Source of the DNA: Chiloscyllium plagiosum
Taxonomy: Eukaryota
Assembly (NCBI RefSeq): GCF_004010195.1
Contig: NC_057757.1
Span: forward strand, 4,952,416 to 5,014,415
Reading direction: 5' to 3'
DNA length: 62,000 nucleotides
The notes below the pieces were generated by a model. That model saw nothing but the letters and a program-made list of their open reading frames with translations, had not been told where the DNA came from and searched no databases. Positions 20,299 to 59,537 of this stretch are shown piece by piece (position 1 is the stretch's first letter; every line of letters starts with the position of its first letter). The position numbers were made by a program, and so were the translations under genes.

Positions 20299-20502
20299 GA
20301 GAAAATGAGGACTGCAGATGCTGGAGATCAGAGCTGAAAATGTGTTGCTGGAAAAACACAGCAGGTCAGGCAGCATCCAAGAAACAGGAAAATCGAAGTT
20401 TCGGGCATGAGCCCTTCTTCAGGGCTCATGCCTGAAACGTCGATTCTCCTGTTCCTTGGATGCTGCCTGACCTGCTGTGCTTTTCCAGCAACACATTTTC
20501 AG
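20299..20502. mobile_element. palindromic Penelope-derived mini-element (family A), copy 1
   Basis: ~84 bp arms spanning 20332-20504. TSD ctttcgtttaac(a/g)tg at 20284-20298 and 20503-20517. Confidence 0.9.
20395..20423 (-). ncRNA. minimal hammerhead ribozyme-like motif (family A)
   Basis: Minus strand: C-CUGAAGA-A-GGGC-UCAU-GCCC-GAAA-C-UUC; sister copies end in C-GUC. Confidence 0.6.
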
Positions 20503-20799
20503 CTTTCGTTTAACGTGCTTTTTTTTCCCAGATCACATTGAGTGTGAAACAAGGGATAGCTCTACGTCATGTCTTACTGACTTGCACGCAAGTCTTTAAA
20601 CACTAATGGAATATTATTAGCTTGAAGTAGTTTGGACAACACAAAGGATGTACATTCAAAGCCTCTTTGTATTATGTTTAGAGTACCTCTGAAAGCTTGT
20701 GTTGAGTTTAGATAACACTAAAGGTAAATTGCAAAAAATCCTGCATTATTAATTTAGCAGTTTTCTTTGAAATCTTGTCAATCTTGAGCCTGCTTAGCC

Positions 20800-21260
20800 A
20801 TTCAGTCAGGTTACAGCCAATCTGAATACTTCATATTCTGACCTACCTCCTTTCAGCTCTTGCTTATTAAGGATCAATCCACCTGTACCTTAAAAATATT
20901 CAAGGACTCTGCTTCAACCACCTCTTGAGAAAGAGAGTTTCAAAGACTTATAACCCTCAGGAAAAAAAAATGTTTTTATCGCCTTTCTTAAATAGGTAAC
21001 TCCTTACATTTAAACAGTGACCCCAAATTCTAGATTCTTCCATATGAGGAAGCATGCATTCCACATCTTCCCAAGGCCCCTCATGATCTTATATTTTCAT
21101 CATGTTGCCTTTTACTCTTCTAAAGTCCAATGGAAGCAAGTCTAATCTGTTCAATGTTTATTTGTAAGACAGCCATCCATTCCCAATATTCATTTAACAT
21201 ACATTTACATTCGTCATAATCTAGCAGACCAGTGTAGTACACAGTACTCCAAATGTCTTA
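20800..21260 (-). mobile_element. old CR1-type LINE 3' fragment
   Basis: gagagtttcaaagact...ttaaacagtgacccc..ttctagattct...acacagtactccaaatgt; similar old fragments at ~33985-34330 and ~37320-37660. Confidence 0.6.
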
Positions 21261-23722
21261 TCAGCATGGAACATGCAGCTGCTTTTCCTTGTCTTGGTTT
21301 GGTATTGCCATAATACAATCAGCTCTCAGGCCTGATTGCTGCTTTCAACAGAGCCAGAGAACTGGTCTATGGGGAAATAAGCAACACTTCCTACTCCTCA
21401 ACTCCCTAGCCTCCTCATCTCCCCATATCAGGCGCTCTCAAAACGACTCTCTTCTCCTCACGAATTCTCTCAGTCTGAAGCACTGAGGACTTATGTTCAA
21501 GAACCACCCCAACAACTGGTGAAAGTTAGTTCATAAAATTGAAATGTAAAGCTTGCCTCCAGATCTGGTCATCAAGATTTGTAAAGGCGATCCTCATTGT
21601 CAGAAGCAATATCACCTAACACATAAAGGTGGAAATATGCTTTTCTTACCCAATCTGGCCTACATGTGAATTCAGACCCACAACAATATAGCGGGCTCTT
21701 AACTGCTCTCTGAAATGGCCTCAGAAGCCACAAGGACTGACAACACGTGCTGGCCTTGTCAACATTGGCAACATACCATTAAAGAATTAAAAACCAAGAG
21801 TTGGTCATGTAATGCAGGAAAATAACAGTAAATGTAAGTCCTTCTCTTAGGGAAAAGAGTTCTAGCTTAAAGAAGAAATCCTGCAATGTCACAAACATCA
21901 TGGATTTCCCTCCTATCATTAAAGCTCTCCTTGTTAAAAAAGCCCCTTTTAAAAGTCTCTCTTAGATGCAAGGCAAAGCAAGTTGAGTGAATTCCCAAGT
22001 GATACTGATTCAGCTGCTATTTAAAAATGGACTTCTAAATCACATTTGTTTTGGAATGTAATTCCTTATTCCTGAGAGCAAGGTGTTATTTCTTGTCTCT
22101 AACCTCGTTTGAAGCTTGTGAATTTTGTCGTCCTGCAATCTCCATCCAAGTTAAATAGCTTGTTTATTGTAACCACCTCCATTTGGCTGTTATTTTATTG
22201 CTGGCAATGGTGCAGCTGTGTGCTGGGGCCCCACTTGTCTTGTTACTGAAGTTCATGTGGCAATAAATTCCAGTGTAGTATGAATCACTGCACAATCATG
22301 TAGACTGACATATTATAAAGGAAGTTTAAATGAAGACTGTTGAAAAATGGAATTAGCCAGATTGTGTTGGCAATGATATTTGTAGAATTGTGCAAGCTTT
22401 CCAACAGTTTGTGACTCATGACAAATGTCAATTTGAGGTACATTAAGCATGTTAACTCACTATTTCTGTTCCCAATAAGACTATTGCCCCCTTCTAAGGA
22501 AGTAATTTTACCACTAAACCTTTTTTTTATCCGTAGATGGTAAATCTCAGAGATTAAAATAAACTCCTGAGGGCAGCATTGCTGCTTAGTTGTCTTGAAG
22601 TGAATTATGAAACAGTACACAGTGTGTCCCAGGGCCATACTTAAATTGGAAAAATGACGAGAGGTCTGGGGGATGGACAAAAGGTTTTTTTCCTCCTGTC
22701 TAAAAATGGGAGTCTGCTTTTTTATATTTTATGCGGATTTGGGATTGGATTAGCCAATACGCCCTGCCCTTTTCTCTTCCCTTTTGATTCCCAGAATACA
22801 ACTATTCTGGTTAAAACAATGTGCATGGTTTGAATTGGTGCAGTAAGCCAAAGTTGCAACGTATCACAAAACTGTTTGTTGGGCAGTGCACACAGCGTGA
22901 ATGGGGAGTGTCTTGGCAGGTTCGGACTTGGAAAAGGCCAAGGACATCCTGTTCAGTAACGTAGTTAACTGTTAGAGAAGCTTTGTATTGCAGCTGGCAG
23001 CCTCTGCTTCTGCCAGGTGGTACTTGTCTTTTTCTGAAGCTTTCTCTTCCCCCGCAGATGGGGTCAAACGCAGCAACAGATGCTGTTGCACAATTTTCCT
23101 TGCCTGCCTGGCAAACTTAATTTGGCGAGACTCCCTTCAAGTTTCCTAATAAGACAACAGCCGGAAATCATCAAACACTTGTTTGCAGTTCCAATTCCCC
23201 CCAGTCAGTTTGTTTAGAATTTTTTTATCTGAAAGGGAAACCAGATAGATCCAGAGAGCCTCCAATCATATCTGCAGTCAGTGCTGAGTTCACAGATCTC
23301 AGCTGGTGGTACGTTTGTGTGGCGTTTGGCACTGGTCTGGCTGGCATAGGGTAAAAGTGATTTTGGCCAGGGTCCATCCTATTGGCTGTAACCCACTGAC
23401 CCACACAAATGTGCAGATCTTGGGTGCCCCTGAACAGACCATCACAAAGCATGATTGCTGTAGAAAAGCACCAAAATCCAGTGCCTCTGTCCTATAGAAC
23501 TGACCACAATCCAGAAATGCCAGGCAAACAGTCAAAAGCAATAGCAACAAAAGTTATTTTCCCTTGTGTCAGTTTCATTTCAAACATCTGCCAGTCAATT
23601 CTCTTATTGTGCGGTGTTTTTTTGCCACTCTAACATCAGGTCGACACAGCAAAGGAAAGCTCTCTGTGATGTCCTGTTTGTATTTGTTGATGCGGAGAGC
23701 GATTATTCCTCTAACTCAGTCA

Positions 23723-23950
23723 CGAGCTGAAAAATGTGTTGCTGGAAAAGCGCAGCAGGTCAGGCAGCATCCAAGGAGCAGGAGAATCGACGATTCGGGC
23801 ATATGCCCTTCTTCAGGAATCATTCCTGAAGGAGGGCTTATGCACGAAACGTCAATTCTCCTGCTCCTTGGATGCTGCCTGACCTACTGCGCTTTTCCAG
23901 CAACACATTTTTCAGCTTTGATCTCCAGCATCTGCAGTCCTCACTTTCTC
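23723..23950. mobile_element. palindromic Penelope-derived mini-element (family A), copy 2, opposite orientation
   Basis: ~96 bp arms centred at 23821. TSD cctct(a/g)actcagtca at 23708-23722 and 23950-23964. Confidence 0.9.
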
Positions 23951-24509
23951 CTCTGACTCAGTCAGCACTAATGAGTACAGAACTAGTCATGGTTACCAGC
24001 AGCACAGAAAAAGTGTCAGGGCTCTCCCACTGCTGCATGCAACTGCAGAATTACATCAGTTGCATTCTGATCCGGGAACCAGTTTACCTTCGGAGGGTTA
24101 GTCTGAACTTGTTGGACTGAAGGGCCTGTTTCCAGACTGTAGGGATTCTATGATTCTGTGGTGGAAGTTAAATTTTAGTGGGGCGATTGACTGAATATCT
24201 GAGTACACAGCATGGTGATTTTAGAATTGTATGCTTATTCACGTGATCGTGATGCTACTGTGCACACACAGTCCCACTATCTGGGTCAAGTCTGTATATC
24301 ATCTAACATTATCAAAATAGCTTCGCAGATCATCTGCCTCCTTGCTATTTGTTAGACCTCGCCAGAGGTAAATTTAGTTTGTTTTTAACGACAGAATACA
24401 GTGCAACACTTCACTAGCTGGGCCTTTGAATGTGAGGTCCTAGAAGGCACGTATAAAAGCATGCCTTTCTTCCGCACAAAGAGGGTGTGAACAAATCATG
24501 ACTGTTCAG

Positions 24510-26390: not shown

Positions 26391-26653
26391 AGAATTCCTA
26401 CAGTATAGAATCAGGCCATTTGGCTCATCAAGTCCATATTGACCCTCTGAGGAGCATCCTGCTCAGGCCATTCCCATGGCCACTCCACCTAACCTGAACA
26501 TCTTTGACTGTGAGAGGAAACTGGAGCATGTGGAGGAAACCCACACAGACAGGGCGAATGTGCAAACTCCACACTGTTGCCCGAGACTGGAATTGAACCT
26601 GTCCCCCTGGTGGTATGAGGTAGCAGCGCTAACCACTGAGCCACCGTGCTGCC
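26391..26653 (-). mobile_element. HE1-type V-SINE, diverged
   Basis: Reverse complement of ggcagcacggtggctcagtggttagc...gtggagtttgcacattc. Confidence 0.85.
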
Positions 26654-27813
26654 TTTTTATCACCCTTTTTATTTTAACTAATCACCTTGAACCTATACTC
26701 TGGTTAACATCTCGTCTGTCTGATGTAATAGTGTCTTCCATCAGAGTTATTCAAAATTTTGAATGTCTCCATTGTCTCCTCTATTTTTCTGATCTGACAT
26801 ATTTAGTAGTAACATGGGTAGGCTATCCAGCCCATAGACCCTGCTCCACCATTCAGTATGTTTGCCCGCCTCCCCCCCTCTATCGCTGTATCCCTTATTC
26901 CTTTAATACCCAAAACTCCATTAAACCCAATGTTGAATATACTTGGCCACCAAACATGTACAGCTCTCCAAAGTAGAGAGTTCTTCCAAAGATTCATATG
27001 AACATGTGAAACAGAGATATTCAGCCCCTCAGGCCTGCTCTGTCATTCAATACGATCATGGCTGACATGTTGCTTATAAGCCCTTTACTGAAAAGAAATT
27101 TCTCATCTCTGTCCTGAGTGACTGACCACCTGATGTGTGACCCTTTGTTTTAGGTTCCTCAATTTTTCGAGGCTAGTCTCTCCCTAGTACCATTCCACTA
27201 CATCTCTCCTCCACCACCAAGTTTTTGATGTCTTCTCTTAATCATGGTGACTAAATTAAAACACAGTGCTGAGACCGAGGACAGAAGCTAAGCTGAATGC
27301 CATGTTGAGAGAGACAGGAGCCAGAGGTCCTTGCAAGTCCTACTAATGAAGTTTAAAATGAAGAGTCGGGCCTGGTTAACATTCCCGTCAACCATCACTG
27401 TGGTAAACATGTAAATTAACCAGCCATTAATCTTATTCTGGACCTTGGAGTGTGAAATTTACTGCTGTGTTTACCTAATTAACAATGGCTGCGTTCTAAC
27501 TAGCAGCTCATTGCAGATGAGTTGACTTGGCCTATCTTAAGGTTAAGTGTGGCATAGTTGGTCTTTCACCCTTCAAAATCCAAACATTGGTCTTTTCTCC
27601 TTTTCCAAGGGAGTTTTGGCATTATGCCTGAAATGTAGCTTTCAGTGAGTGGTGATTTGTAAATAAGCTGGATTTAATATTGATTTCAAACTTTATCAGC
27701 AACCACTGTGACTGTTTAGACTAATCTTGTTAGACCAGTTGATAAGTATTTTGCTTGGGAGTGCGTTAGGAGTTTTTGTTGGTGGGAATAGAGAGTAGTA
27801 CTTTGGAATTCTA

Positions 27814-28259
27814 AGTTAAAAATCTCACAACACCAGGTTATAGTCCAACAGGTTTAATTGGAAGCATACTAGTTTTCGGAGCGCCGCTCCTTCATCAGGT
27901 GATAGTGGAGGACATAATTCTAAGGCACAGAATTTATAGCAAAAATTTACAGTGTGATGTAACTGAAATTATACACTGAAAAATACCTTGATTGTCTGTT
28001 GAGTCTTTCATCTGTTCGAATACCATGATAGTTTAACTTCTTTCATGTGTAAATTAGCAAATCTTTTTTTAAAAGTTGCATTCTCAGGTTAGCTGTAACA
28101 ATGGGTATTAGCTAGACAATATGTTGAAGGTGTTAGCCCCCTGTATTCTGTCTATGCCATGATGTTTAGATTGATTCTAATCTAAAAAGTGAGAAAACTA
28201 GAGTTTTCCATGAATTCATGCAGTTTTTGAGCAAAGTACAATGTAACTCTGCAAGTACA
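27814..28259 (-). mobile_element. Penelope-like element (family B) 3' terminal fragment
   Basis: aagttaaaaatctcacaacaccaggttatagtccaacagg terminus shared with 31121-31510; hammerhead-like motif; flanking aattcta repeats at 27807-27813 and 28260-28266. Confidence 0.7.
27868..27900 (-). ncRNA. minimal hammerhead ribozyme-like motif (family B), best preserved in window
   Basis: Minus strand: AC-CUGAUGA-A-GGAGC-GGC-GCUCC-GAAA-AC-UA-GU; perfect 5-bp stem II, 2-bp stem I. Confidence 0.65.
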
Positions 28260-30982
28260 AATTCTAGACTTTGATCAGAGATCATGTTTTATCAACTTTA
28301 TAAGAGCATTAAAATAGCATCCTTTTAGAACGACAGCCTCCAACTGCTGTGGTTACTTGGACAACTGCTGCCCTCTGCCACCTTGCCCAACTGCCCATTA
28401 CTCTCATCTCAACCAAGCACTTAACCCTTGACCGGCAATGTGACTGCAAGTTATTCCTTGCTCCACCAACACCTATCTTTGTCTGAAGCCTCCAAAAATA
28501 TCCTTTCTGGCTAGGATAATTTGAAGTTAGTTCTAGGACATCCAAAATATCACTCAGAAGCTAATGGAATGGACTTGAGGTGATAATGATAGCAAGCAAT
28601 GCTACTGTGAATACTGTGCTTGAAATAGGCATCATGGTGTTACTGATCTGTACAGGAGACAAGCTTCCACATTTCTGCACTGAAAATTATTTCTGTATTT
28701 CAATGCTGCCGCTAACTTAATCTGTTATCCCTTATGTGTCAGCCTCAGCTCTGTGGTACCACACTCTCCTCTGAGTCAGTCCAATCCCATAGACTTAGAA
28801 CCTTCAACCCCTCAGACTCGAATGAGGGATGCAGTGCCATCTTTTGGGTGAGCTACCAGGCTCTCAGCCAAAGATTTAAAAAGATCCAATCGGACTTCAA
28901 ACGACTGAGTTCTCCTCCATAATCTCACCAATATTTGTGTTTCAGCCAGTGCTGTTAAAATCTGGTGACATCATTGCTGTTTGAGATTTTACCATGTGAA
29001 CATTAGCTCCACTTTCCAATAACTGAGATTGTCAATTAAAAGTGATTCTTTGTAAAACCCTTTTGGACATTCTGAAAGTAGCTGTACAAATCCAACTTCA
29101 TAGGACAGCATTAAAACAATTTCAAGCCTTAAACTGTTTGCAGGAGCACCTTTAAAGTAGTTAGGACTTGCAGCTAATGCTTGACCAGCATTATGACCTG
29201 CTCTTTGTCACTATGTGGTTAAACAAGGAATGTAGATTAAAAGGAGGCACAAAAGAGAGCTTTCCATGTTATAGTGTTTGCTAAGACTCCAGTGCAGTTC
29301 AAATGCATTTCTTAAGTTTCTTCCCACGATACAAACCTGCAAGTGAAACTTAGTGCCATATTGGAGTGTAGTACATGAATTAACTATTCCTTGTATTCAT
29401 TTTACAGTGGCATAAAATTTATCTTAACTTTCTGGCTATGTGACTTTGATATTAAAATGGAGGATTAGTTGGAGGGTAGGTACATGTGGTGGAGCTGTGA
29501 AATTTCACTGGATTTAATAGCTTTGCAACTTTGAGCATAATTACTTGTCAGTTTAAGTTGATTTTTGTTTATTACTGCTGTTTGAGTCTTTATTGGAAAG
29601 TGGTAAATATTGAGGAGTGCTTTTTTGTTCCACCACCACAGTATTTAATGGGTGAATATAGTAATATTTGGTAATAAGCATTGTTGCAGTATACATTGGG
29701 CTTCTTGGTACAATTCCATTTATTTTGGTGTTTGGGAGGAAGTTCTCTTATTTTGGTGGTGTGTGGGAGGAGAGAATGGTTCACATCTGTGCAACTGAAC
29801 ATGGAAAGAATCTGTGCTGAAATGGGTAGTAACTTCTGTAAGTTGACAGCGTTGATTGCAATTTAAACAGCCTTGTGGTTTGAAGACAGTGGTTTTGAAA
29901 TTGGCTTTGAGTCAGGCTGCACTTGAAAGAATTTGATTTTTTTCCATTTCGGTGGTGAACGCAACATCGCAGGTGATATCTAAACACAGACTGGGTGATA
30001 TATTTGAAGTTGCACCTAAACCATTTTGCTGCCTTGTCTCTCCATTACAAGCTGACCTGACTCTGCTTACAATGGGAAGACACTTATATCCATGGGTTTT
30101 TATGGCCCTCCTGTACTCTGAAATTTGCTGCTCTACTTTGTTCATTACCATGAATCATTTAAGAGGCATATCAAGCTGTCTGCATGTTTCTTTCTGCCAG
30201 CTACATTGTGTGATGAATGGGAACCATTTCCTTTTTTGGTAAATATTTTCCTTTTGCCAGCTACATTGTTGTTAAAGCAGCCACTCGCCCGTGGACCAGA
30301 AGTAGTGGTGACCATTTCATCTAGGCATCCCTCCACATCCTACCTGGAAGCTTGCTTGAAGAGTAGCATTCAGAGGTGCAACGGTTAAATTGTTCATCTG
30401 TTCCCTCAGGGCTTTATGCACAATTGCCAGTGCTGGTAAAGTGGGTTATTTCACTCTGCTGCCTTTAACTCCTCCTTTTAAGGAAGTGCCCAAAGGTGGT
30501 TGTTGAGAATGTTTCCCTTCGTTTTCCCGTTTCATTCAGAACAACTTGATTCCGTGTTGATGTGTGGTTCTTTGGCTGCTTGCTATTTTTTTTTGGCACT
30601 TAATTGAAGTGGCTTTAGAACTGAACCTTCTGACGGAACTGAGAGTGTGTTGCCGTTGAGCCAAGGTAACAGTGATAGCTTTTGGATTTGTAGATTCAGT
30701 TCTTTGCATATCCTGCCAATCTGTGGCTTGATCCCATGAGGAGAGAAAGCTAATGCCAGTTACTTGTAGCTCAGTTCATATACTTCCTACTATCTCTTCC
30801 CAGTGAAGATTTGAAACGGGCATTTTGGCAGTGTGGGGTTTTAAGTGGGTGACAGAAGAGAAGATGCCAATGATATGTAGCTCTCGAGGGGGAATAATTA
30901 CCATGCTTAACTTTGTTATCATAACTTTAGTGATGTGATTTTATTTTTAATCTTGTAGAGTTGTTTGTCGGAAGACAAGGAA

Positions 30983-31023
30983 ATGGCAGCAGAGACTCAG
31001 ACGCTCAACTTTGGACCTGAATG
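30983..31023 (+). CDS. GIGYF1: GIGYF coding exon 1, MAAETQTLNFGPEW (exon probably starts at 30959)
   Basis: Acceptor ttttaatcttgtag ends 30958; ATG in strong context (gaaATGG); donor TG|gtaatg at 31024. Confidence 0.96.
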
Positions 31024-31120
31024 GTAATGTATAACCAAAGCGCTTTCTGAGAAAGGACATGTTTTGGAGATTTTCATCATGCCCTCATCAGGACAGAGGT
31101 TAAGAAATACCCAAGTAAAA

Positions 31121-31510
31121 GGATGATTTGGAGGTGCCGGTGTTGGACTGGGGTGGACAAGGTTAAAAATCTCAACAGGAGAAAGTGAGGTCTGCAGATG
31201 CTGGAGATCAAAGCTGAAAATGTGTTGCTGGAAAAGCGCAGCAGGTCAGGCAGCATCCATGGAACAGGAGAATCGACGTTTCGGGCATAAGCCCTTCTTA
31301 GGGCTTATGCGCGAAACGTCGATTCTCCTGTTCCCTGGATGCTGCCTGACCTGCTGCGCTTTTCCAGCAACACATTTTCAGCTAAAAATCTCAACACTTG
31401 GTTATAGTCGAATAGGTTTATTTGGAAGGACTAGCTTTTGGAGCTCTGCTCCTTTATCAGGTGGACAGCTAGTGCTTCCAAATAAACCTGTTCGACTGTA
31501 ACCTGGTATT
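31121..31510. mobile_element. palindromic family-B Penelope-derived element, interrupted by a family-A element
   Basis: Arms ggttatagtcgaataggtttatttggaaggactagct / agctagtgcttccaaataaacctgttcgactgtaacc enclose a decayed hammerhead (31431-31462, minus). Confidence 0.8.
31178..31382. mobile_element. palindromic Penelope-derived mini-element (family A), copy 3
   Basis: ~84 bp arms. Perfect 14-bp TSD taaaaatctcaaca at 31164-31177 and 31383-31396. Confidence 0.92.
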
Positions 31511-37903: not shown

Positions 37904-39239
37904 GTAATTGCAACAGGTGTTACGTGCAATTGGACAGAGGCCAGGGGAGGTTGACTATGGCTAAGAGGTTTTTACGAGGTGGTTGATGGTCCTCCATCCT
38001 TGTGTTCTTTAACTGTTCAAGTTGAAATGTTGTTGTGAATGCTATTGAAAATTATGTGTTTAAAGCTATATTTACCCTGGTATTAAATTAAAATCATTCC
38101 TGCAGGGCCAGGTACTGCAATAATGATATGCCTTTCTCAGATCCATGTATGAGTGCATGGAAACTGATGGCTCGGTTTGCATCAATATTTTGAAGCCATG
38201 CTGCAGAGCTGAGTTCTTAAATCAGCTGTGATACAAGATTGTTTGCATGGCAGCAGCTGTACAGACTCCATATCAGGAGATATGACTGATACCAGGAGAG
38301 AGAATCTGATGCTGTGACATTTCTGACTCTTGTGTTCTAAGTCTTCCTTGCCTTTAAGAGAATTCACCTTTAAGGGCTCCACATGCTCTGTGTGTAGTGT
38401 TGTAATTCTGCCTGCCAGATTTGTAACTAAGAATTTGTAACTTGCACATGCTGTCATGGCTACTTATGTTCTTTTCTGTTTTATAATAACTAACAGAGTT
38501 AATCAATCCCTGAGGAATATTTTAATTATTAGATCATTATCAGGAACATGGCAGCTTAGATTCAGGGGTACTGGCTGCCATATTGAAACTCCGAATGGTG
38601 AAATAGGAATTGGTTCAGGTGCAAAATGAAGGAATTGCACAAAACAGAAATACATTAATCTTCTTGTTGCCTCAGTGGTTTCCAGAAAAGCATATGTTGT
38701 TTGCATTTTCTGATTGCCTTCCCTTAAAGGCCTAACTTTAGCCTTAGTATGGTTTCCTCGTCCCAGCAGACCTCCAGCACTCAATCCCATCAACAGCTCT
38801 TAAAGCAAGAGTCCACTTAAGGCTTTGACCAGCTATAGATTCTCGTTGGCTATCAGCTGACAGCTTTCCAGTAGATGGATGCTCAAAAGCAGCAGAGGTT
38901 TTAATGGGTGATTCTTCCCTGTCCACCTCCCAGGCAACAGGGGCACCAATAGTGATTGCCTCGCTTGTTGCAGTGATTGAGATCAGCTAATCAGTCATGA
39001 TCGATCAGGAATAGTTTAACAATTGGAGGAGCCTCAACAAATAAGCCTATTGATGATAAAAGAACCCAGTGCATCAATATATTTAAAAAGCTGAAGCATT
39101 TGTAGCCATCCTCAGCTGAAGTGCTAAGTGGACAATCCATTTTGACTGAGATCCCCACCATCAGGGTTGTCAGCTGATTTGATTCACCACTTGATATCAA
39201 AAAATCTGACAGAGCACATTGGGTGATGAAATGCAGACT

Positions 39240-39830
39240 GGGTGAACACTTAGGGTCATTTTTTTGGGGATGGAACCTGAGCTTCCAGTTGCCTGCCACT
39301 TCATCACACCATATTCTCATGCCAGTATTCCCGTTGTAGGCCTATTGCAGTGTTCCATCAAGCCTCATCGCCAGCTCGAAGAACACCATTTCATTTTCTG
39401 TCTGGGGACCCTGCAATCTCTAGGACTCAACATCAACTTCAATAATTTCAGAGTCTGATTCCACCTTTCCACATTTTTTAAACCAACTCCACACCCTGTC
39501 ATATTACGTCATGGGTTGTTTTTAGCACAATCATCCGTTCCTGCATACTCTAAGGCGCATTATCACATTCCGCGGGTTGCATTTAGCACAGCTAACGCGT
39601 TTTCCTTGCTCTTAGCTGTTCTTATCACTTAAGTTTCTGACCAGACTTCTGTCCTGGTTTACTATCCCATAATCTTTGTCCACCCTCTCCTTTTTCATAT
39701 CTCCCTCTTTCCCTCTCTTCAGTGTAAATATCACTTTTAACTCTGAAAATGTTAACTTTTTTTTCCCACACATGTTGCCAGACCTGCTGAGTTTCTCGAG
39801 CAGTTTTCTTTTCAGATCTCCACAGTTCTT
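39240..39830 (+). mobile_element. old Penelope-like element 3' remnant (GIY-YIG C-terminus plus terminal repeat)
   Basis: ORF 39264..39458 (LPVACHF...RQLEEHHFIFCLGTLQSLGLNINF) resembles LEEEYFIFHLGTLQP of ORF 58675..58860; terminus ttgccagacctgctgagttt at ~39775-39800. Confidence 0.75.
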
Positions 39831-40312: not shown

Positions 40313-40486
40313 GTATGGTTTGAGCTTTAGTGGAAATAAGATTCATTTTGCGTCCTCTCTGGACCCCAGAGTGATTGAGACTACATTTTTACAAATTGCT
40401 AAGAAACTTTATGCACTCATCAGTTATTAGGCAAACTCACTTTCAGAATAATCCGGATGGATCAACATAGAGTCATAGAGATGTAC

Positions 40487-46345: not shown

Positions 46346-46360
46346 AGCTAGTAGGGGCAG

Positions 46361-46876
46361 GAGAAAGTGAGGACTGCAGATGCTGGAGATCAGAGCTGAA
46401 AAATGTGTTGCTGGAAAAGCGCAGTAGGTCAGGCAGCATCAAAGGAGCAGGAGAATCGACATTTCGGGCATAAGCCCCTTCAGGAATGAGGAAGGTGTGC
46501 CAAGCAGGCTAAGATAAAAGATGGGGGGAGGGGCGTTGGGAATGCGATAGGTGGAAGGAGGTTGATAGGCCGGAGAGGTCGGGAAGAAGATTGCAGGTAA
46601 AGAAGGCGGTGCTGAGTCCGAGGGTTGGGACTGAGATAAGGTGGATGGAGGGGAAAGGAGGAAGCTGGAGAAATCTGCATTCATCCCTTGTGGTTGGAAG
46701 GTGAAAGATGAGGCGCTCTTCCTCCAGGCGTCATGTTGCCATGGTCTGGCGATGGAGGAGGCCAAGGACCTGCATGTCCTTGGCGGAGTGGGCGGGGGTG
46801 TTGGTGTTCAGCCACAGGGCGGTTGGGTTGGTTGGTGCGTGTGTCACAGAGGTGTTCTCTGAAACGTTCCGCAGAG
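46361..46876 (-). mobile_element. Penelope-like element (family A), 5'-truncated, non-palindromic
   Basis: Family-A terminus plus GIY-YIG C-terminal remnant (QPQGMNADFS; SAKDMQVLGLLH). TSD agct(a/c)gtagggg(c/t)ag at 46346-46360 and 46877-46891. Confidence 0.88.
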
Positions 46877-46894
46877 AGCTCGTAGGGGTAGCTA

Positions 46895-47717: not shown

Positions 47718-49633
47718 GTATGAAATTCTAATAATGACTAATTGTTATCGAAGTCAGTGGAAGGGTAACCTGAGGTGCTTGACACTTACGTAATCAGTGT
47801 GGAAATGTGCCGTCCTGTAACAATGTCAAACTGTGTGCCCTCACCATCGAACATTTCTTCCTTCAGATTTTAATAATATATTTTCAGCTTCTGCTGTTAT
47901 CAACTAAATCTGGTTGATGCAACAAAAGAATGCAAAAATTAATGAGTCTCTTCCTCCCCCCCTCTTTCCCCCCCCCCCCCCCAAAAAACCATGTGTGCAT
48001 TAATTGCTGTTGAAAATCCGTATTAGAATACATATTGTTTATAATGCTATTTCTCTAAGCTGCATGGTTGGATGGCTCCACAGCATTCAGCAACAGACAG
48101 GCCTTGCGCAGTTCTGTTTTAAAATGCATGCAGCAGCCATCTTGAGGGCACCACATAGTGCAGCACAGAGTCAGCAGAAGGATTGGAGGGAATTTTGTAC
48201 TTTGCGCCTGATTTTGCACATGTTTAATACATTTAAAAACATATCCAGTCACTTCACCAAGGACCACCATTCCTTTTCCCTTTTGGCTGCTCCCAGTTTC
48301 CCCCGCTGGCACTCCTTTTCCCTGTCACATTGACAAACCGTGAAATGCTTGGCAGCTTTTCAGTCTTACCGATTTGTCAAAATATTAAACTGATTCTGGG
48401 CAGGGCACTGGCATCTTGAGTATGCGGGAGGTCCCAGCCAAGCACAACATGCATGCGCACACCACACACATTTTCCTAATGTTGAGTATTTTGTCACAAT
48501 AGCAAGAGCTGTGAAACTTCCACAGGCCCCTTCCCCATTTCCTGAGGAAGAGCTGATAATATAGTGTCCTAACAAGAAACCAGTCAAATGTTAAAAGATT
48601 AGTCATCTGTTTAATATAATGTAAACATTCTGTATTGCTATATAGAGAGCCAGCACAGACTAGATGGCTTCCTTTGCTCCTCTGGTTCAGTGCTGTGACT
48701 TAATGTTTTTTTTAAATGTTTTGGGCTTACCTACCCACAGATGTGGACCATTGAGCAAATCAGCATGGTCTTGTAAATGCTTAGATGGTATTGGCATATT
48801 TCGAACAGTCCCTGCTGTGATGGTTACCTAGAGAGGAACACTTGCATTTATTGTCGTGCACAGCCGCAGTTGTTTTAAGCATTTCAAACCCAATGAAATA
48901 TTTTGTCTAAAGTAGTCACTGGTGTAATGGGAAACATCCCTGCAGTGATGAAATGGCAGGTTGGTTGTTTTGACGGTGTTTAAGTAAGAAAGGTTGGTCA
49001 GGGTACACATAGAACCTCTATCTCCTGTTCAGAATGGAGCTTTGGAACATTTAACATCCACTACTTCTGAGGTACATTATATATGTGTAGATGTTGACCT
49101 CCGCATTCAGCTAAGAATTCCTTGGTTTTAATGTACAGCATGCAAGAGTTGTTTCCTGATTTTTTTGCCCCAGTTATCCTGAATTTTCCATGTTCCTTGT
49201 GCCTGTTTTGAGAGTGGAGTTGGTAGGAACAATCTGCTGATTTTTTTTTTATTATAATATCTCAAGAATATTCTCATTTAAACTGTCAAGAAATAGCACA
49301 GGACAGCTGTTCTCTGCTGCATTCAGAACTATGGCACTATCAGTATTGGTAGTTGTCAAGGGCTGGCTTTAATTTCTCAACCCTCTCAAAAATATTCATG
49401 TATGTAATTATTGCCTAAAATATTGGTCACAAAGACTCAATCCGTTGGCATTCACTGCAGTGCAACACTCCCTCAGTACAACAGTGCAGTGTCAGCTTAG
49501 CTGGGTGGGCCAATTAAAAAGGAAACTGCCTGCATTTATATCGCAACTTCTGTGATCACTTGATGGCATTTTCAGCCGATAGCTACTATAACCAGCCCAG
49601 TCCTGGAATGCAGCACAGCCCTAGGGTTATAAA

Positions 49634-49845
49634 GGAGAAAGTGAGGTCTGCAGATGCTGGAGATCAGAGATGGAAATGTGTTGCTGGAAAAGCGCAGCAG
49701 GTCAGGCAGCATCTAGGGAACAGGAGAATTGACGTTTCGGGCATTAGCCCTTCTTCCTGAAGAAGGGCTATTGCCCAAAACGTCGATTCTCCTGTTCCCT
49801 AGATGCTGCCTGACCTGCTGCGCTTTTCCAGCAACACATTTCCAT
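49634..49845. mobile_element. palindromic Penelope-derived mini-element (family A), copy 4
   Basis: ~88 bp arms. Perfect 15-bp TSD ccctagggttataaa at 49619-49633 and 49846-49860. Confidence 0.92.
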
Positions 49846-50102
49846 CCCTAGGGTTATAAACCCTAGTTTATACTCTGGTATAGTTTCTCCCTGCAAACCT
49901 GTTGTCCATCCTCTGTTCTGAAGAAACTTTTTCTCCTTTTAAGTTTCCAGTTTGTAAAATATTTTAATTAATAATTTTAGTAAATTGCTGCACTTGTTGA
50001 AGAGGATGATTGCTGGACTGGATGGAACTGCATGGAAGTTGTTAGGAGTTTTCATGAAAGCATAAAATATAGTGCAGAAAGGGGACTGGTAAGCCATTAA
50101 AT

Positions 50103-50428
50103 GGGTGGCACGGTGGCTCAGTGGTTAGAACTGCTGCCTCACAGCACCAGGGTACCAGTTCAATTCCAGCCTCGGGTGACTGTCTGCGTGGAGTTTGTAC
50201 ATTCTCCCCGTGTTGCATGGGTTTCTTCTGGGTGCTCCAGTTTTCTCCCACAGTCCAAAGATGTGCCGGTCAAGTGAATTGGCCATTCTAAACTGCCCAC
50301 AGTGTTGGGTGCATTAGTCAGAGGGGAAATGAGTCTGGGTGGGTTACTCTTCGGAGGGTCAGTGTGGACTGATTGGGCCAAAGGGCCTGTTTCCACACTG
50401 TAGGGAATCTAATCAAATATAATCTAAA
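50103..50428 (+). mobile_element. HE1-type V-SINE
   Basis: Same head, V-domain and tail as 19038-19338. Confidence 0.92.
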
Positions 50429-51725: not shown

Positions 51726-52002
51726 GTAAGAAATTGAGCAGAAGTGGGCCGTTTTGAAAATCAAACGGAAATGTCTTGGTGCGTTTCTGGGTTTGGTAAC
51801 TGAGGGAGCCTTCAAGTCACTTTTTAAACTACCAACTGCACAGGCTACAACGTCACGTGCCGGATTTCCAACTTGTCCAGATTTTGTTACCTTCATCCAG
51901 GGAGCATGTAGTCTTGCTGTGCTTGGCGTCAAAGCTTCTGCAGCAACGTAAAAATTGGCAAAGTCACTGTTTTTGATGATCATTCTGGTACTAAATGAAA
52001 TA

Positions 52003-52679
52003 GGAGAAAGTGAGAACTGCAGATGCGGGAGATCAGAGTTGGATCCTCTATCAAAAAAGACATTGACTTGGACCCCATTTACCACCCCCTGAGAAAAAGA
52101 ACAGGAAATGACATTGCCATAGGAAATAACATCATCACAGGAAATGGCATCACCAACCCAAGGAAACCCAAACACATCAACAGAAAGCAGGAGACACCAG
52201 CAGTGCTTCGTCCGGAGGCTCACTGAAGATGTTACCCAGTATGGTGAAAAAACATCTGAAAATGAACCTTCCAGCTCAGCGAGCAAAACTACACTCAAAC
52301 TACACTCAGAGTTTGAGTGTGGCACGGGAAATGCACAACCGGTCAGGCAGCATCAAAGGAGCAGGAGACTAGATGTTTCTGGCATAAACCCTTCATCAGG
52401 AATGACGCTTGTGGGCCAAGGGGGTTGAGAGATAAATGGCACTCATACCACAGCTTCATCTCGTTCCTCACCACCTGCCTACGGAATCAACTGATCCCAC
52501 AGGGATTCCAGACCGCATTCAGACCATACCTATCGCACTCCCAGCTTCCTTCCCCCAACCCCCGCCCCTTGGCCCATAGGCCTCTTTCTGATGAAGGGCT
52601 TCTGCCTAAAACATCGATTCTCTTGCTCATTGGATGCTGCATGATATGCTGTGCTTTTCCAGCACCACCCTCGTCAGCA
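52003..52679. mobile_element. older family-A Penelope-derived element with inverted termini and a nested insertion
   Basis: ggagaaagtgag...gatcagag tail; inverted termini at ~52314-52420 and ~52565-52672. Degenerate TSD ctggtac(t/c)aaatg(a/t)aa at 51985-52000 and 52680-52695. Confidence 0.8.
52044..52305 (+). mobile_element. Penelope-like element (family C) 3' end nested in a family-A element
   Basis: Begins with ORF-end remnant SIKKDIDLDPIYHPLR. Decayed hammerhead UCA-CUGAAGA-U-GUUACC-CAGUAU-GGUGAA-AAAA-CAUC-UGA at 52220-52259. TSD tcagagtt(g/t)ga at 52033-52043 and 52306-52316. Confidence 0.75.
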
Positions 52680-52896
52680 CTGGTACCAAATGTAAGTCTT
52701 GCAATGTGTGAGATATGCCTTTGAAAGACTCTGCCTGACTGACATTAGAAATCTGAAACGCTTTGTCTCCTTTACACAACACAACACTGTGTTTAATTGT
52801 TTAATTGTGTGGTTTAACAGTGGGGCAGGGGAACTTAATTGCTTGATTTCTCTCCAATTCAGGGAAGCCTAAAATTAAATGTTGACTTTTTATCAG

Positions 52897-53063
52897 GTCC
52901 GTTTACAACGCAGGAAATGGCTGACTGGTTCCAAGCTGGATATTTTCCCATGTCCCTCTTGGTTAAACGGGGTTGTGATGAGGGCTTCCAGCCGCTGGGG
53001 GATGTGATTAAGATGTGGGGAAGAGTGCCTTTTGCTCCTGGTCCCTCTCCTCCTCCGTTGCTG
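52897..53063 (+). CDS. GIGYF1: coding exon 13, GPFTTQEMADWFQAGYFPMSLLVKRGCDEGFQPLGDVIKMWGRVPFAPGPSPPPLL (GYF domain core)
   Basis: ttttatcag| acceptor, CTG|gtaagt donor; GPF-x4-M-x2-W-x3-GYF signature. Confidence 0.98.
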
Positions 53064-53163
53064 GTAAGTAAGCATTCCTTGCTGGGATTTGAAAGGGGGA
53101 TGTTGACTTTAGTGGCTTATTTAAAAGTCCACATTCCTTACTTTATATACTGTTTTGTCATGC

Positions 53164-53172
53164 CACACACAT

Positions 53173-53216
<44 letters not shown>
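53164..53216. repeat. compound (CATA)n(CA)n microsatellite
   Basis: Read directly. Confidence 0.97.
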
Positions 53217-55454
53217 CCCATGCAAATACCCATCTTGTGCAAGATTACCTTGTAATGGGGTCAGTGGAGGGGAGAAAATGAGAAGTAACGCCTCACCACA
53301 TCCTGTCTTTTAGCTTTGTCTCCTCCTGGTGCACAGACCCTAGCTAGATTCTCCACATGCATAACTTGAGACAGTGAACCCTTTGAAACACAACCTCTTG
53401 ATAATGCCAAAATTTGTCCCCCAGTGAGTGCTATTGAGCTGAACTCTCAACTCTCCCCTCTGCTGTAGTGACGAGTGGCTAATCTGCAGGCACTTGAGCA
53501 ATGATAATTTGGTGGCAGCCCTACCAGTTCCCAAATCATGCTGTAGTCTCTTCAGGGAGCAGATTACCCCCCCCCCCCAACCCAGAAAAATGTAGGGTGC
53601 AGGATTGAATCTTCAAGTTCTGATTCAGTACCATTCAGAGCCATGGTCTGAGATCACTGCACAGCCTCCAAGCTATCGTGTATTTTTTTTGTAGAATACT
53701 TTTAAATGTGTGGAGCAGACCTGTGGCGTGAAATGATTTCTAGGGTTGATTGGTACCAGTGCTGAACTCAGAAACGTAAGCTGACCTGTTCATTCTCTCA
53801 TTATTTAACAAATGGATGGTTTATTTCTGATTGGTGGTGGCAGCAAAGCAAGCTAGGCATCAACGTGACTGCGTCTATGTGTCCTTTAAGTGGGAGATGG
53901 AATTCTGTGGAAAGCCAGCTAGGAATTTCATTATGGCTAATTTTTGATGTGGGTGGCTGAGGCTTCTCTCTTGTCAGCATATTTCACTGACATGATTCAA
54001 GTGAGGACATAGTAGTGATTTCCTGCTGACACATTGTTAACTTGTGGATCTGCTCTGTGGTTTAGCTTGGGAGACTAGTGAGATACAGCTTGTACACACA
54101 CTGAAATAGTGGCACAAACCATGATTGTCTAATTGTTGCAATGGTTTGGTTTGTTGGCCACACAAAGGAGGTGTCAGATTTCAGAACCATTTGTTTTCTG
54201 CCTTGTTGACAAAGCATGTTGGGTTAGAGTGTAGCATGGTAAAAATCTACATTGTTTGTGAGCCGGTTGACATTCTTGCTTCCTCGCCTTTTGATTTTCT
54301 GCCCATATCTCAACGTGCTCCCTATCCCACCTTTAAATCTTGGCCCCCTCAAACAACCGGCTCCCTTACAGTGAAAGGATTTGCATCTTTATCGCATTTA
54401 TCATAGCCACCAGACTACTTGGTGCTTAACAGCCGACTATGTACCTTTTGTTAAATGTAGTGCCCATTGTTCATCGGCACTCTTGAGTGGCGAGTGTATT
54501 GACTGTGATCTTGTCTAATTGTATTTCTCTTTGATACCCCCTTGCCTCAGTGAGTGCATGCCCAATGGTAACTACCTCTCCTTGGAGGGATGGGCTATCC
54601 TCGACCCAAGTCAGCAGTCTGATGTTTTAACACCCCTGTGGTCTGCAGGATCGTCATTATCATTCTAATCTCTTGACCTTTCTGCTAGTTGACTGTTTTT
54701 AAGGTTGCCACTTGGTCATTGCATCCTTCTCATTAGGAGTAAAGTTGACAGTAATTTATTTTTGGTCAGGGGGGGTCAGTCCTTATCCTCCCTTTGTTAA
54801 AGCTTGTCCCTTACTCTGTAAGCCATCAACCAAGAGAACAGTCAAGTGGAATTGTGGCCTCCTCACAGCCCTGCAGAAAATGCTGCTTTATGTCAGCCAG
54901 TAGGAGGCATACGTTGTCTGTAAAAATTAGACATCAGTTTGTGATAGGAAGTGCTACCCAAGACTCGGAAGCTAAAATCACAGGCATATCTTGTTAAAAT
55001 AAAAATTGAACCAACGCCATTGTCACTGGTTCCAGTGTGGGCCATGCCTGGACATCAGTGCAGATTAAAACCAACCAGACTCCAGTCCCATGATCTCTTC
55101 CTGTCCCTTAAAGGAGCTTACTTGATTATCTTCCATCCATCAAATCTCCCCGTTGGCCAGTAACTTAGCAAATTTATAGCTTCAAATAAAGACCTTTAGT
55201 TTGAATTTTATTTGTAAAGTTTGTGTTTAATATTATTTACCACTTTTTTTTCATTTTATTTTTCTTCCTATCTGCATTTCACAGGTGTCTCACAAGACTA
55301 ACCAGTACAAATATTTGCGTGTGGTAAAACCTAAGTGTAAAGGTGACCGAGCAATCTATTTGCAGAATTGGGTTTTTCAGAGCACATGTTGGTTCGAGAG
55401 GCGGAGAAGTTGGAGTTTATTTTTTTTCAAATGGAGTTTGTTTGGTCTTGGTAG

Positions 55455-55552
55455 GGCGATATGGACCAGGGGAGACTGAAAAAGCAGCGGGAGTTGGCAG
55501 CTGCCTTGTATCATCAGCTTCAATACCAGCAATTTCTGCAACTCATAAACAG
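55455..55552 (+). CDS. GIGYF1: coding exon 14, GDMDQGRLKKQRELAAALYHQLQYQQFLQLIN
   Basis: cttggtag| acceptor, CAG|gtaaga donor, 98 nt. Confidence 0.95.
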
Positions 55553-56840
55553 GTAAGAAGTGCAGATCTCTTGTACTCTGTGAAGTACAGGGCACCCCAT
55601 GACCTGCAATATCTTTCATTTTGCCATTTACTAACCCACCACAGTGTCACACAAGGGATGTCATGCAATGGTTTGACAATGTTACTTTAAATTCAGGGTG
55701 TCTATTTGAGATGTGAGAGTGATGCTCGATTAGTCCATACAGAGCTAATCTGGCCCAGAATGCCTTTTTGGGCCCCACAGATGGTTTGCAAGCCTGTCTC
55801 TCTAAGTTGCATCTCGTTTTTTTACTTGTTTTCAGCTATAGTGGATTGATTGTTGGCCCCCAAGTTAAAACACTCTCTCTTTGCTGCATAATGTCGTCAA
55901 GTCATTTGCTACCATGGTCTCTGCACTCTTCAGTCCAAACTTTTATGAATGCTATGTGTTGGCTGGGATGATTAGTGTTAACGTTGCGCAGTGGAACACC
56001 TTTTTGCATTATTAGCTTCCATTAGCATGCCCAAGTTGAGGCAAATCATAAGCTAACAGAGATGGACTTCAGCTTTCTTCTGTACTAATGTCATCTGATT
56101 ATTTCCATCATGACGCATTTATTGGTCTCTGATGATTTCATGTGTTGGGAATAGTGGTGTGAGCAAGGAGGGCCCACTATGACTCAGATCTGGATTCACT
56201 TAACACCCTGTATTGGTGGAAAAGAGGGAAACTTTGTCCTTGGCTGCGTGACCTGGTTCTGAACTACGGGGTTTCCAGGTTTATTAGAGCATTTGTGCTT
56301 TACATAGAGTAACACTCATGTGCATGTTCCCATTGAAAATTTGTTCGCTTGAAATAACAGATTGCTCCAGCCACACCTGCAAAGAGAAAAGGTGGGCCAA
56401 TGTTTCAAGGTGACGGCATTGTCCATCAGTTATTGCATTATTCTCAAATTTTATTAATTGGATGTAGATTTTTGCTTGGCTCTACTGAATCAGGTATATG
56501 ATCAGTCATTTATTTGCATGTCTCTGGGATGTCAGCAGAACACTTAGCATTATTTGCAAATTTCCTAGCTGCCTCACCTTCAACCTGAGAGTGGGCATGA
56601 ACAGTGACAGTATTTTACCTGGAATGGAACTGGATGGAGAGCAATGAAATATTTTGCACCTTAGCTGGTAAACACATCATATGCTTTTGGCACAAAAGTA
56701 GAAAGGTTTGATCTCTTTCTCCCCCCCAACACCAAACTTTTCAGTGGCCATCCACTGGTCTGCACCCTGTGATCTAATCTAATTTTGGTGTTGAGATTGG
56801 TCAGTGTCCCCTGAACTCACCACCTGTTTGTGGGATTGGA

Positions 56841-56894
56841 GTCACATGTCAGCAAGTCTGGATAGAGGTCACATGTCAGCAAGTCTGGATAGAG
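56841..56894. repeat. perfect 27-bp tandem duplication
   Basis: gtcacatgtcagcaagtctggatagag twice. Confidence 0.95.
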
Positions 56895-57462
56895 GTGATA
56901 GGATCCCTCCCCTAAAGGAAGCACTTGGGACCTTAGAACACCTCAGCAGCTCTCGTTGCTAATTGATATTCTGTAGATAGCCCGTGTTTTATCAGGTTTA
57001 TTGAATAGAATTTCAGAGCCAATGTTGTAACTCACTTTTGCCATTCCCAAAACTATTCTAACCACTCAACTCCACGCAAGTTTCTAATGTGGGTTTGTTT
57101 TCAGATTATGTACTTAAAGGCATCCTGAGATGTCTTGGGTGGATTCTGTTCCTTGCCTAATGCCTATAGCTTCTAACTCCGCGTTATTTTATAATATATG
57201 ATGCATGAGAAATGGTCACCTGATAAATTAGAGTGCTGGTAGCAGCGGCAGCACTGCACGTCAGAGTGAGAATTTGGTCTAGACAAAGGAAGCTCTACTC
57301 CTCCTGTAACTGTGGCGTGTGCCTGGCCTCGTTGCGTCTGTCTTTGTCTTGATGGGTGTGTTTCCAGTGAGCAAAGCAACCAACCCCATTCACAGGTAGA
57401 GAAACTAACATGTTCCAAAGCTGAATACAAAATTCATAATGGCTCTCTCCTTGTTTTTGTAG

Positions 57463-57570
57463 CCGGCAGCAGCTTGTACAGTGTGCGCTACAGCAGAAGG
57501 CAAACATGACGCCCCAGCAACAACAGCAACTTGTGGTGTTCCTGCAGCAGATCCAGGCCCTCAAATCAAG
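57463..57570 (+). CDS. GIGYF1: coding exon 15, SRQQLVQCALQQKANMTPQQQQQLVVFLQQIQALKS
   Basis: tttttgtag| acceptor, AAG|gtagtg donor, 108 nt, Q-rich. Confidence 0.94.
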
Positions 57571-58005
57571 GTAGTGATATGGAATAGTTGCACTAACTGT
57601 TCTGTTTTACCTTCAAATAATTGTAGATTAAAGTTAGAAAACTCTGGATTTGCTGCACTTGACAGCAACAATGTAATATAACAGGGATTTGCACTTCATG
57701 TATAAACTGCGTGTGTAATATTCTTAACCATCGACATAAACTAAACAGTTATGACAGTTAATTTGGCACCTGAGTTTATTCAGTCTCCAGCAAGATGAGA
57801 ATCATCAATGATTGTCTTGTAACATAAACTAGGAACATGGGTAATGTGGCATTGAAGGCTACAACAGCTATTCAGTTGCCATAAGGAGAATGCTTCAAAC
57901 CAAGATGGAATCTGGGACTTATCTATTCTCTGGTCGCCTGCCAAGGAAGTGATATCGTGAGCCTGTCTCTTAAAGGTGTACTGCTGTTAGACAACACTAT
58001 TGTGT

Positions 58006-58317
58006 CGCACGGTGGCACGGTGGTTAGCACTGCTGCCTCTCAGCGCCAGAGACCCGGGTTCAATTCCCGCCTCAAGCGACTGACTGTGTGGAGTTTGCAC
58101 GTTCTCCCCGTGTCTGCGTGGGTTTCCTCCCGGGTGCTCCGGTTTCCTCCCACAGTCCAAAGATATGCAGGTCAGGTGAATTGGCCATACTAAATTGCCC
58201 ATAGTGTTAGGTAAGGGGTAAATGTAGGGCTATGGGTGGGTTTCGCTTCGGCGGGTTGGTGTGGACTTGTTGGGCCGAAGGGCCTGTTTCCACACTGTAA
58301 TGTAATCTAATCTAATC
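58006..58317 (+). mobile_element. HE1-type V-SINE, young
   Basis: Intact A/B boxes, V-domain, gaagggcctgtttccacactgta and (aatct)n tail. Confidence 0.94.
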
Positions 58318-58390
58318 ATTGTAGACTCGCAGTGCTAGTTGACTTGTGTATTCCATTCTCTTCTATCAGTAGACTGTTGTGAAGAATATA

Positions 58391-59537
58391 GGAGAAAGTG
58401 AGGACTGCAGATGCTGGAGATCAGAGCAGAGAGTGTGGTGCTGGAAAAGCGCAGCAGGTCAGGCAGCATCTGAGGAGCAGGAAAATCGATATTTCGGACA
58501 AAAGCCCTTAATCAGGAATGAGGCTCGTGGGCCGGGAGGCTGAGAGATAAATGGGAGGAGAGGTGGGGCTGGGGAGAAGGTAGCTGAGAATGCGACAGGT
58601 AGACGTAGATAGGGGAGAAGGTGATAGGTTGGCGAGGAGGGTGGAATGGATAGATGGGTAAGACAATGGACGGGTCAAGAGGGTGATGCCGAGTTGAAGG
58701 CTTGGGACAGGGATAAGGTGGGGGATGGGGAAATGAGGAAACTGGTGAAATCCACACTGATCCTGTGTGGTTGCAGGGTCCCAAGGTGGAAGATGAAGTA
58801 TTCTTCCTCCAGATGTTGGATGGTTAGGGTTTGGCAATGGAGGAGGCCCAGGACCTGCATGTCCTTGGTGGAGTGGGAGGGGGAGTTGAATTAATTCAGC
58901 CACAGAGTGGTCGGGGTCGGTTGGTGCAGGTGTCCCAGCGATGTTCTCAAAATGATCTGCAAGTTAGCGTCCTGTCTCCCCGATGTAGAGCGACCACATC
59001 GGGTGCAATGGATACAGTAGGTGACATTGGTGAAAGTAGGTGTAAATTTCTGTCAGATGTGGAAGGGTCCTTTGGGGCCTTGGACGGTGGTGAGGGGAGA
59101 GGTGAGGGTGCGGGTTTTGCAATTCTTGCAGTGGCAGGGGAAGGTGCTGGGTGTGGGTTGTGGGCTGGTGGGAGTGTGTGGATCTGACAAGGGAGTCGTG
59201 TAGGGAATGGTCTCTGAAATGCTGATGGGGTGGGGAGTGAAATATATCCCTGGTGGTGGACTCTACTTGTAGGTGGTGGAAGTGGGAGAGGATGATGCGA
59301 TGTATAGGGAGGTTTGTGGGGTAGGAAGGTGAGGACCGGGGTCCTGTCCTTGTTGCATTGGAAGGCGTGGGGGTTCAAGGGCGGAGATGCAGGAAATGGA
59401 GGAGATTTGCTGGAGGGCATCAACCATGTGGGAGGGGATATTGCAGTCTTTGAAGGACGCGGCAATCTGGTGTGACCTGTGGTGGAATTGGTCATCCTGG
59501 GCTCAGATGCGGTGGAGGAGTTGGGAATAAAGGATGG
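58391..59537 (-). mobile_element. Penelope-like retroelement (family A), 5'-truncated, ~1.15 kb, with RT C-terminal and GIY-YIG endonuclease remnants
   Basis: Minus strand reads (with stops and frameshifts) QDDQFHHRSHQIA, NVTYCIHCTRCG...LYIGETG and LEEEYFIFHLGTLQP. Perfect 15-bp TSD tgttgtgaagaatat at 58375-58389 and 59538-59552. Confidence 0.93.

Follow-up and report, generated by a model that had tools for sequence, protein, structure and literature searches.

Minimal hammerhead motifs of three sequence families as probable decayed 3' ends of Penelope-like elements in a locus of the shark Chiloscyllium plagiosum

Background

Minimal hammerhead ribozymes (min-HHR) share the published consensus NNN CUGANGAH G..C GAAAN NUH NNN and, according to the paper that set it out (Cervera and de la Pena 2014, PMC4209133), form several consensus families per genome, with 6 in coelacanth and 8 in Xenopus. 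Motifs of this layout occur in a window of 62,000 nucleotides (nt) from Chiloscyllium plagiosum (NCBI RefSeq assembly GCF_004010195.1, contig NC_057757.1, positions 4,952,416 to 5,014,415 of the forward strand), the whole of which was analysed and to which all coordinates below refer. In this window lie 13 motif sites, which fall into three sequence families (10 in family A, 2 in B and 1 in C); we put at about 0.88 the probability that they are decayed 3' ends, or pseudo-long terminal repeats (pLTRs), of at least three Penelope-like families whose master elements carry a minimal type I hammerhead, the copies here being by-products of insertion.

The window motifs resemble the metazoan min-HHR presented in PMC4209133: they are of type I, have an extra base between A9 and 10.1 and a G10.1-C11.1 pair, are palindromic at 15.2-16.2, lack loop III, have a short stem I, and come as several families per genome whose copies are mostly solo or in inverted pairs 100-700 base pairs (bp) apart. 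They differ from most motifs listed there in the 4-bp stem II and weaker stem I of family A. The likeness to the Poseidon element PAc of Anolis carolinensis (Frangieh et al. 2024, PMC11167929) extends to a pLTR motif, an uncut RNA template, a 30-40-nt tail that may be absent and reflects two initiation sites and, for family C, a start codon at the start of stem II; unlike PAc, which is intact and for which protein-assisted cleavage was measured, the window offers sequence fragments only, and its family A has a Neptune-type cysteine linker. Endonuclease-bearing Penelope units (Arkhipova et al. 2013, PMC3846280; Craig et al. 2021, PMC8557442) share with the window copies a head-to-head inverted, 5'-truncated arm, a one-ended tail and target duplications, whereas the window copies are cut down to the last 90-130 nt; all five window hairpins fold back at the hammerhead 5' edge, a clustering that the passages of those two papers describing such units do not state. 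Animal retrozymes of the type lacking long terminal repeats (bioRxiv 10.64898/2026.07.22.740005) likewise have a type I hammerhead from Penelope pLTRs, but form head-to-tail tandem arrays, unlike the solo or head-to-head copies described here.

Since several stem II families per genome were already published, the initial annotation of this sequence, which had reported a minimal hammerhead layout in at least three unrelated Penelope-like families, overrated the novelty of that observation. The portions searched of the PMC4209133 supplement (file 1 excepted) contain 0 matches for shark, Callorhinchus, Chiloscyllium and Leucoraja, and our literature search found no paper on shark Penelope hammerheads; hammerhead repeats have been reported in one chondrichthyan genome (Li, Clavereau and Pollet, bioRxiv 10.64898/2026.07.22.740005). 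The arrangement has been known since 2014, and the window adds motif families from cartilaginous fish, extending the 2014 motif class to more families of that group.

Motif families and chance expectation

A search with a fixed descriptor of the minimal motif (CUGANGA, 1 extra nt, stem II, GAAA, NN, UH and a 2-bp stem I) yields 0 perfect sites in the window. Allowing one deviation yields 4 (mean 0.01 in 100 dinucleotide shuffles) and allowing two yields 8 (shuffle mean 0.27, maximum 2), of which 7 come from families A and B, always at the same position in the repeat. The eighth, at 29551, lies outside all three families and is probably a chance match; sites at 15789, 4180 and 52677 are also taken as chance. 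A fourth candidate motif proposed earlier at 31066..31092 on the minus strand falls away: its best parse has at least 4 deviations, such sites average 13.7 per shuffled window (60 shuffles), and no second copy lies within the window. Chance resemblance to a short consensus thus holds for this candidate and probably for 29551, and the blank Rfam search reported below also speaks for it; for the motifs as a whole it is a negligible prospect, given the excess over the shuffles and the shared position of seven sites within repeat families, and for families A and B it is already rejected.

The motifs listed for all three families in the initial annotation are present where it had placed them, although three sites (A at 31275-31302 and 46458-46483, B at 31432-31460) had been missed. 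Its remark that every copy deviates is borne out by the lack of perfect descriptor sites and by family A, of which 12 arms from 7 insertions were aligned over ~130 nt: 8/8 whole-core arms deviate from the majority, the core of the other 4 being cut by the fold-back junction, and no single copy in the window has perfect family-level boxes. The majority of the 12 arms, AUUC CUGAAGA A GGGC UUAU GCCC GAAA CG UC GAUU, nevertheless keeps every conserved core position, including the CUGANGA and GAAA boxes and the UH site. Stem III of family A consists of the palindrome ACGU only, with CG at 15.2-16.2 in 7/12 arms and UA in 1/12.

In family B, as in family A, a single unpaired base separates A9 from 10.1, and G10.1-C11.1 is present. 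Both boxes occur in one family B copy, the other having G8A and G12A, and stem III reads GAAA-GC-UA, with palindromic GC at 15.2-16.2, in 2/3 arms; the ending GAAA-ACUA of the earlier consensus is specific to the 27898 copy, with GCUA in those 2/3 arms. The single family C hammerhead (52223..52256, plus strand) has a 3-bp stem I, a 6-bp stem II and three deviations (11.1, G12 and 16.2); CUGAAGA is intact, the extra U and G10.1 are present, 11.1 is mutated and 15.2-16.2 reads CA. The AAAA annotated as its second box reflects a G12A substitution in this copy. Between A, B and C every stem differs in sequence and still pairs, a comparison of three points that carries no statistic. The self-comparison of the window found no DNA similarity among the three families; calling them unrelated is therefore accurate for their DNA and probably wrong for their ancestry.

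Deviations of individual copies were also set against public runs over 51960-52760, with figures from the best 40 of 171 rows. At the four positions where the 52399 copy deviates, 67, 67, 84 and 89% of run X1 depth carries the majority base; 11.1 of the 52588 copy is restored in 70% of X1 depth, and G12 of family C in 58%, as it is in 103/172 reads of run X21.

Relation to Penelope-like elements

The longest family A copy (58390..59600, minus strand) runs into a frameshifted frame at 58741-59598, in which a broken reverse transcriptase (RT) thumb, a CxCxxC linker and a GIY-YIG endonuclease are followed by a 3' untranslated region, the hammerhead and a tail. Read through with X at stops, this frame has 275 protein matches with E no higher than 0.001. 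The highest-ranking named matches are skate, ray and whale shark proteins; 6/8 scanned matches carry RVT_1 and GIY-YIG, mostly under Pfam cut-offs; Pfam found nothing significant in the retroelement fragments of the window themselves. The linker between RT and endonuclease, FPCHCKNCKT, aligns to FPCNRRVCNTC-type motifs, and a cysteine linker is described for the Neptune clade. Judged by its sequence, family A corresponds to the 3' end of an endonuclease-bearing Penelope-like element with a Neptune-type cysteine linker.

The earlier attribution to Penelope-associated minimal hammerheads in which stem III is vestigial and palindromic holds for A through its RT and GIY-YIG frame. Families B and C are likely Penelope-like by anatomy (tail, inverted arm, target duplication and motif geometry) and not by protein match. 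The piece upstream of the family C motif we take to be a Penelope C-terminus, which searches did not confirm. An older, decayed Penelope 3' end at 39210-39830 (plus strand), recognized by its endonuclease C-terminus (tblastn E=1e-14), is possibly of a further family, and the descriptor finds no hammerhead downstream of it.

Insertion anatomy

Four family A insertions are head-to-head hairpins of 170-230 nt with 12-16-nt target duplications (10-16 nt across insertions), and all four combine tail, inverted arm and target duplication. The long arm exceeds the short one by ~35 nt, and the short arms share one end point. In 4/4 family A hairpins and in the family B hairpin, the long arm starts between -5 and +7 of C3 and never at position 17, the cut site, which indicates that the copied RNA was uncut. 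Several of the best-supported joints in run X1 likewise lie 4-7 nt before C3, where loose ends have mixed flanks, and depth in that run falls from 640,000 at 52388 to 31,000 at 52425, a drop confounded by upstream subfamily divergence. We infer that the copied RNA probably began or stalled at the front edge of the motif. Reverse transcription may start at either of two sites ~35 nt apart, leaving an optional tail, and would then cross the uncut site and often stop or fold back at the motif 5' edge, giving 200-bp hairpins with target duplications. The fold-back points bear on what Penelope hammerheads do, as they hint that the copied RNA starts just before the ribozyme.

The short hairpins and solo ends could instead belong to an independent, self-copying non-autonomous family resembling short interspersed elements (SINEs) or retrozymes. 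The four A hairpins are near-identical in size and anatomy, motif depth exceeds that of the flanks by a factor of 10^4 to 10^5 (which is not a copy number), and animal retrozymes are reported to derive from pLTRs. This explanation is improbable in view of hairpin centres that vary from -5 to +7 of C3, of private variants common to both arms in 3/4 family A hairpins (as fits one fold-back per insertion), of longer copies with coding remnants, and of the absence of motif tandem arrays, both among 7 tandem rows and from the self-comparison of the window. We therefore retain the view that these copies are insertion by-products of Penelope-like masters.

The first of the family A hairpins (20298..20504, target duplication CTTTCGTTTAAC at 20284 and 20503) has a tailed long arm on the minus strand and a tail-less short arm on the plus strand; its hammerhead, spanning C3 to H17 (20395..20422, minus strand), has 16.2 G>U, and the fold-back junction cuts the 5' strand of stem I. 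In the second (23725..23952, target duplication at 23707 and 23949), whose centre is 4-5 nt 5' of C3, both arms keep a full core, with A15.1>U in the minus-strand motif (23789..23816) and A9>G, 11.2 C>A and 1.1 G>A in the plus-strand one (23826..23853), for which the folded hairpin gives a stem II probability of 0.0. The third (31177..31383, target duplication TAAAAATCTCAACA at 31164-31177 and 31383-31396) is nested in family B, and its junction cuts both cores, leaving a site at 31275-31302 that retains stem II, GAAA, CG and UC. The fourth (49633..49849, target duplication CCCTAGGGTTATAAA) holds a plus-strand motif with G12>A (49757-49784) and a minus-strand motif whose core is cut by the junction (49731-49758).

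Three further family A insertions are built differently. A 5'-truncated copy (46359..46876, minus strand; target duplication at 46346 and 46877) carries an endonuclease C-terminal remnant and has a hammerhead with a 2-nt core deletion at 46458-46483. An older unit (52002..52682, target duplication at 51985 and 52680), split by family C, consists of a tail, an inverted arm, a short open reading frame with an N-terminal piece (52452-52538) and a direct arm; its minus-strand hammerhead (52372..52399) deviates at four positions, where most other copies carry the majority base, and its plus-strand one (52588..52615) has 11.1 C>U, G12>A and 16.2 G>A. The piece at 52452-52538 (plus strand), between the inverted arms, resembles a Penelope protein N-terminus (E=9e-4), which makes this an internally deleted element. 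The long copy at 58390..59600 contains a hammerhead (58488..58515, minus strand) with G8>U, 11.3 C>U and stem III CG>UA.

Family B is represented by a tail-less end (27808..27905, minus strand; 81% to 31374-31463), whose hammerhead (27870..27898, minus strand) has stem III broken by 15.2 G>A, and by a hairpin insertion (31127..31510), itself split by the family A insertion, with a 34-nt tail (31127-31160), a minus-strand long arm with a G8>A and G12>A hammerhead (31432..31460, minus strand) and an inverted short arm (31466-31510, plus strand). A target duplication of family B was looked for in the window and not found.

Family C forms a single 262-nt piece (52044..52305, plus strand) nested in family A, with a coding-like remnant upstream of the motif, an 11-nt target duplication TCAGAGTT(G/T)GA at 52033 and 52306, and an empty site seen as joints in other public runs. 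An ATG at A9, the start of stem II, opens a frame to the end of the element, and the cut site lies 28 nt on; the corresponding distance from start codon to cut site in Anolis PAc is given as 26 nt in PMC11167929. Inside the family C piece, an 18-nt unit is repeated 3.1 times at 52101-52155.

Both nested insertions are near the tail boundary of the host element, 3-4 nt off for A in B (31164-31396) and across it for C in A (52033-52316), and these two cases, noticed post hoc, could reflect cross-family targeting of the tail. Near-perfect hairpins of 85-95 bp occur between host exons at 20332-20504, 23725-23917, 31212-31383 and 49666-49849; they would form long duplex RNA in pre-mRNA and are candidate editing substrates.

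On the minus strand, the family B hairpin at 31405-31500 folds as a type III-like three-way junction, in which the short arm, beginning at the complement of A15.1, pairs with stem III. A type III reading of this copy was rejected: it would have G at position 17, and the 5 nt before C3 leave no room for stem I. More generally, fold-back inversion could provide the vestigial stem III with a long pairing partner on the same RNA and so turn a dimer-dependent type I motif into a monomer-active type III hammerhead, an idea that we think very unlikely; if true, new intronic ribozymes may arise from Penelope inversions, through hairpins that happen to have the right register among very many copies.

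Decay of the inserted copies

Six scored motif positions of family A are CpG sites (11.1/G12, 15.2/16.2 and 17/1.1), and deviations are far more frequent there (14/72 cells) than at the other fixed positions (8/210; P=9e-5, 2-nt deletion left out). At non-CpG positions the motif does not decay more slowly than downstream DNA (8/210 versus 37/552, P=0.17). Taken together, the two comparisons argue that the copies, whose decay is plain, have decayed neutrally since insertion, fastest at the CpGs on 11.1/G12, in stem III and at 17/1.1. The placement of these CpGs explains why single-copy descriptor scans undercount such motifs in methylated genomes. The earlier impression that the loop varies while the stem is kept finds mild support within family A (8/48 loop versus 4/84 stem cells varied, P=0.03, arms not being independent), with no compensatory change in stem II.

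Cleavage and activity

How such motifs might act in a master element is suggested by published systems. Penelope dimers are reported to cleave through the palindrome, at low rates in vitro (PMC4209133), and cleavage of Anolis PAc is protein-assisted (PMC11167929). In a partial-tandem transcript of a master, two motifs would accordingly pair through their 4-nt palindromes (ACGU in A and probably in C, AGCU in B), building the missing stem III so that cleavage could follow GUC or CUA, probably assisted by the protein that the element encodes. By analogy, we lean towards the master elements being competent for cleavage.

A number of observations weigh against this account as a whole. Rfam, whose hammerhead models had been put forward as a check, gives no hammerhead match in the window at E up to 5, as may be expected for motifs without stem III; its matches on the hairpins are chance microRNA-like ones only. 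Stem covariation within family A does not exceed that in shuffles (203/500 reach the score), which is formally one of the outcomes that the initial annotation had named as refuting it, though rows descended neutrally give little power. Stem I of family A is weak (2 bp, a U-U mismatch and 1 bp), and the family A dimer fold, at -9.3 kcal/mol, lies 12 above a competing duplex at -21.9; in the energy model, dimerization of a natural motif like that of B gains nothing over two monomers. At G8 and G12 of family B the two window copies are tied 1:1, and for family C restoration is seen for G12 only, among the best 40 of 171 rows. Protein searches for families B and C (Pfam, word-indexed and Atlas) are blank, weak negatives for fragments that are short or non-coding. 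No pile-up of RNA ends was found at the predicted sites among 2662 reads of run X21, a poly(A) single-cell library ill-suited to the purpose, and 0 reads matched in run X22. Finally, 8/9 Xenopus dimers are reported as showing no cleavage.

Several of these points could be read differently, with the masters keeping the motif for a non-cutting role, such as a protein-binding fold, a promoter or start-codon context or a stop for reverse transcription, and cleavage being incidental or absent. The uncut site retained in all copies, junctions at the 5' edge rather than at the cut site, the empty read-end table, the weak stem I and unfavourable dimer energy of family A and the uncleaved Xenopus dimers all suit such a role, as do the findings in PMC11167929 that PAc core mutants insert normally in vitro and that no reads end at the site. 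We nevertheless regard it as unlikely: the family A majority has all catalytic positions while stems differ by family, which fits selection for catalysis, and the PAc and Schistosoma motifs are described as cleaving under the right conditions (PMC11167929; PMC4209133).

Competence of the masters is a separate matter from activity of the copies in the window, which we judge extremely unlikely. Host exons flank the motif sites, 4/13 of which are on the host sense strand, and repeat RNA is present in run X21, so that some copies might be thought active ribozymes that cut or regulate host pre-mRNA. Every one of the four sense-strand sites is core-changed (A9G once, G12A three times), however, three of the four are in inverted units whose stem II probability is 0.0 when folded on the plus strand, the host sense, and only 4/2662 placed reads are 99% like this locus, with unclustered ends. 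As folding predicts, hairpin copies would pair the motif with its own complement and so have no ribozyme action; burial in duplex and core deviations together make the copies here look dead.

Other features of the window

A pattern scan gave 0 matches in viral contigs and 27 loci in metagenomes, 23 of them distinct and none with flank similarity to the window. Five of the 23 have 3 bp or more in stem I, 4 bp or more in stem II and pairing in stem III; these loci serve as illustration only, as the search pattern itself fixes part of the pairing. Two marine metagenome contigs (L004:397-431 and L009:397-431) each contain a minimal hammerhead free of deviations that resembles family B at 94% over 35 nt; the DNA around it is unrelated, and loci L008, L011, L016 and L026 likewise fit the minimal layout.

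The window itself is vertebrate DNA of 42% GC and also carries reverse transcriptase fragments from other retroelements. Its plus-strand host gene encodes a GYF domain (PF02213, E=1e-13; coding stretch 52896..52997), and an exon with MAAETQTLNFGPEW lies at 30983..31023 on the same strand; we take the gene to be GIGYF and this exon to belong to its N-terminus. An abundant, unrelated SINE-like repeat family occurs at 19042-19341, 26476-26649, 50102-50420 and 58001-58316.

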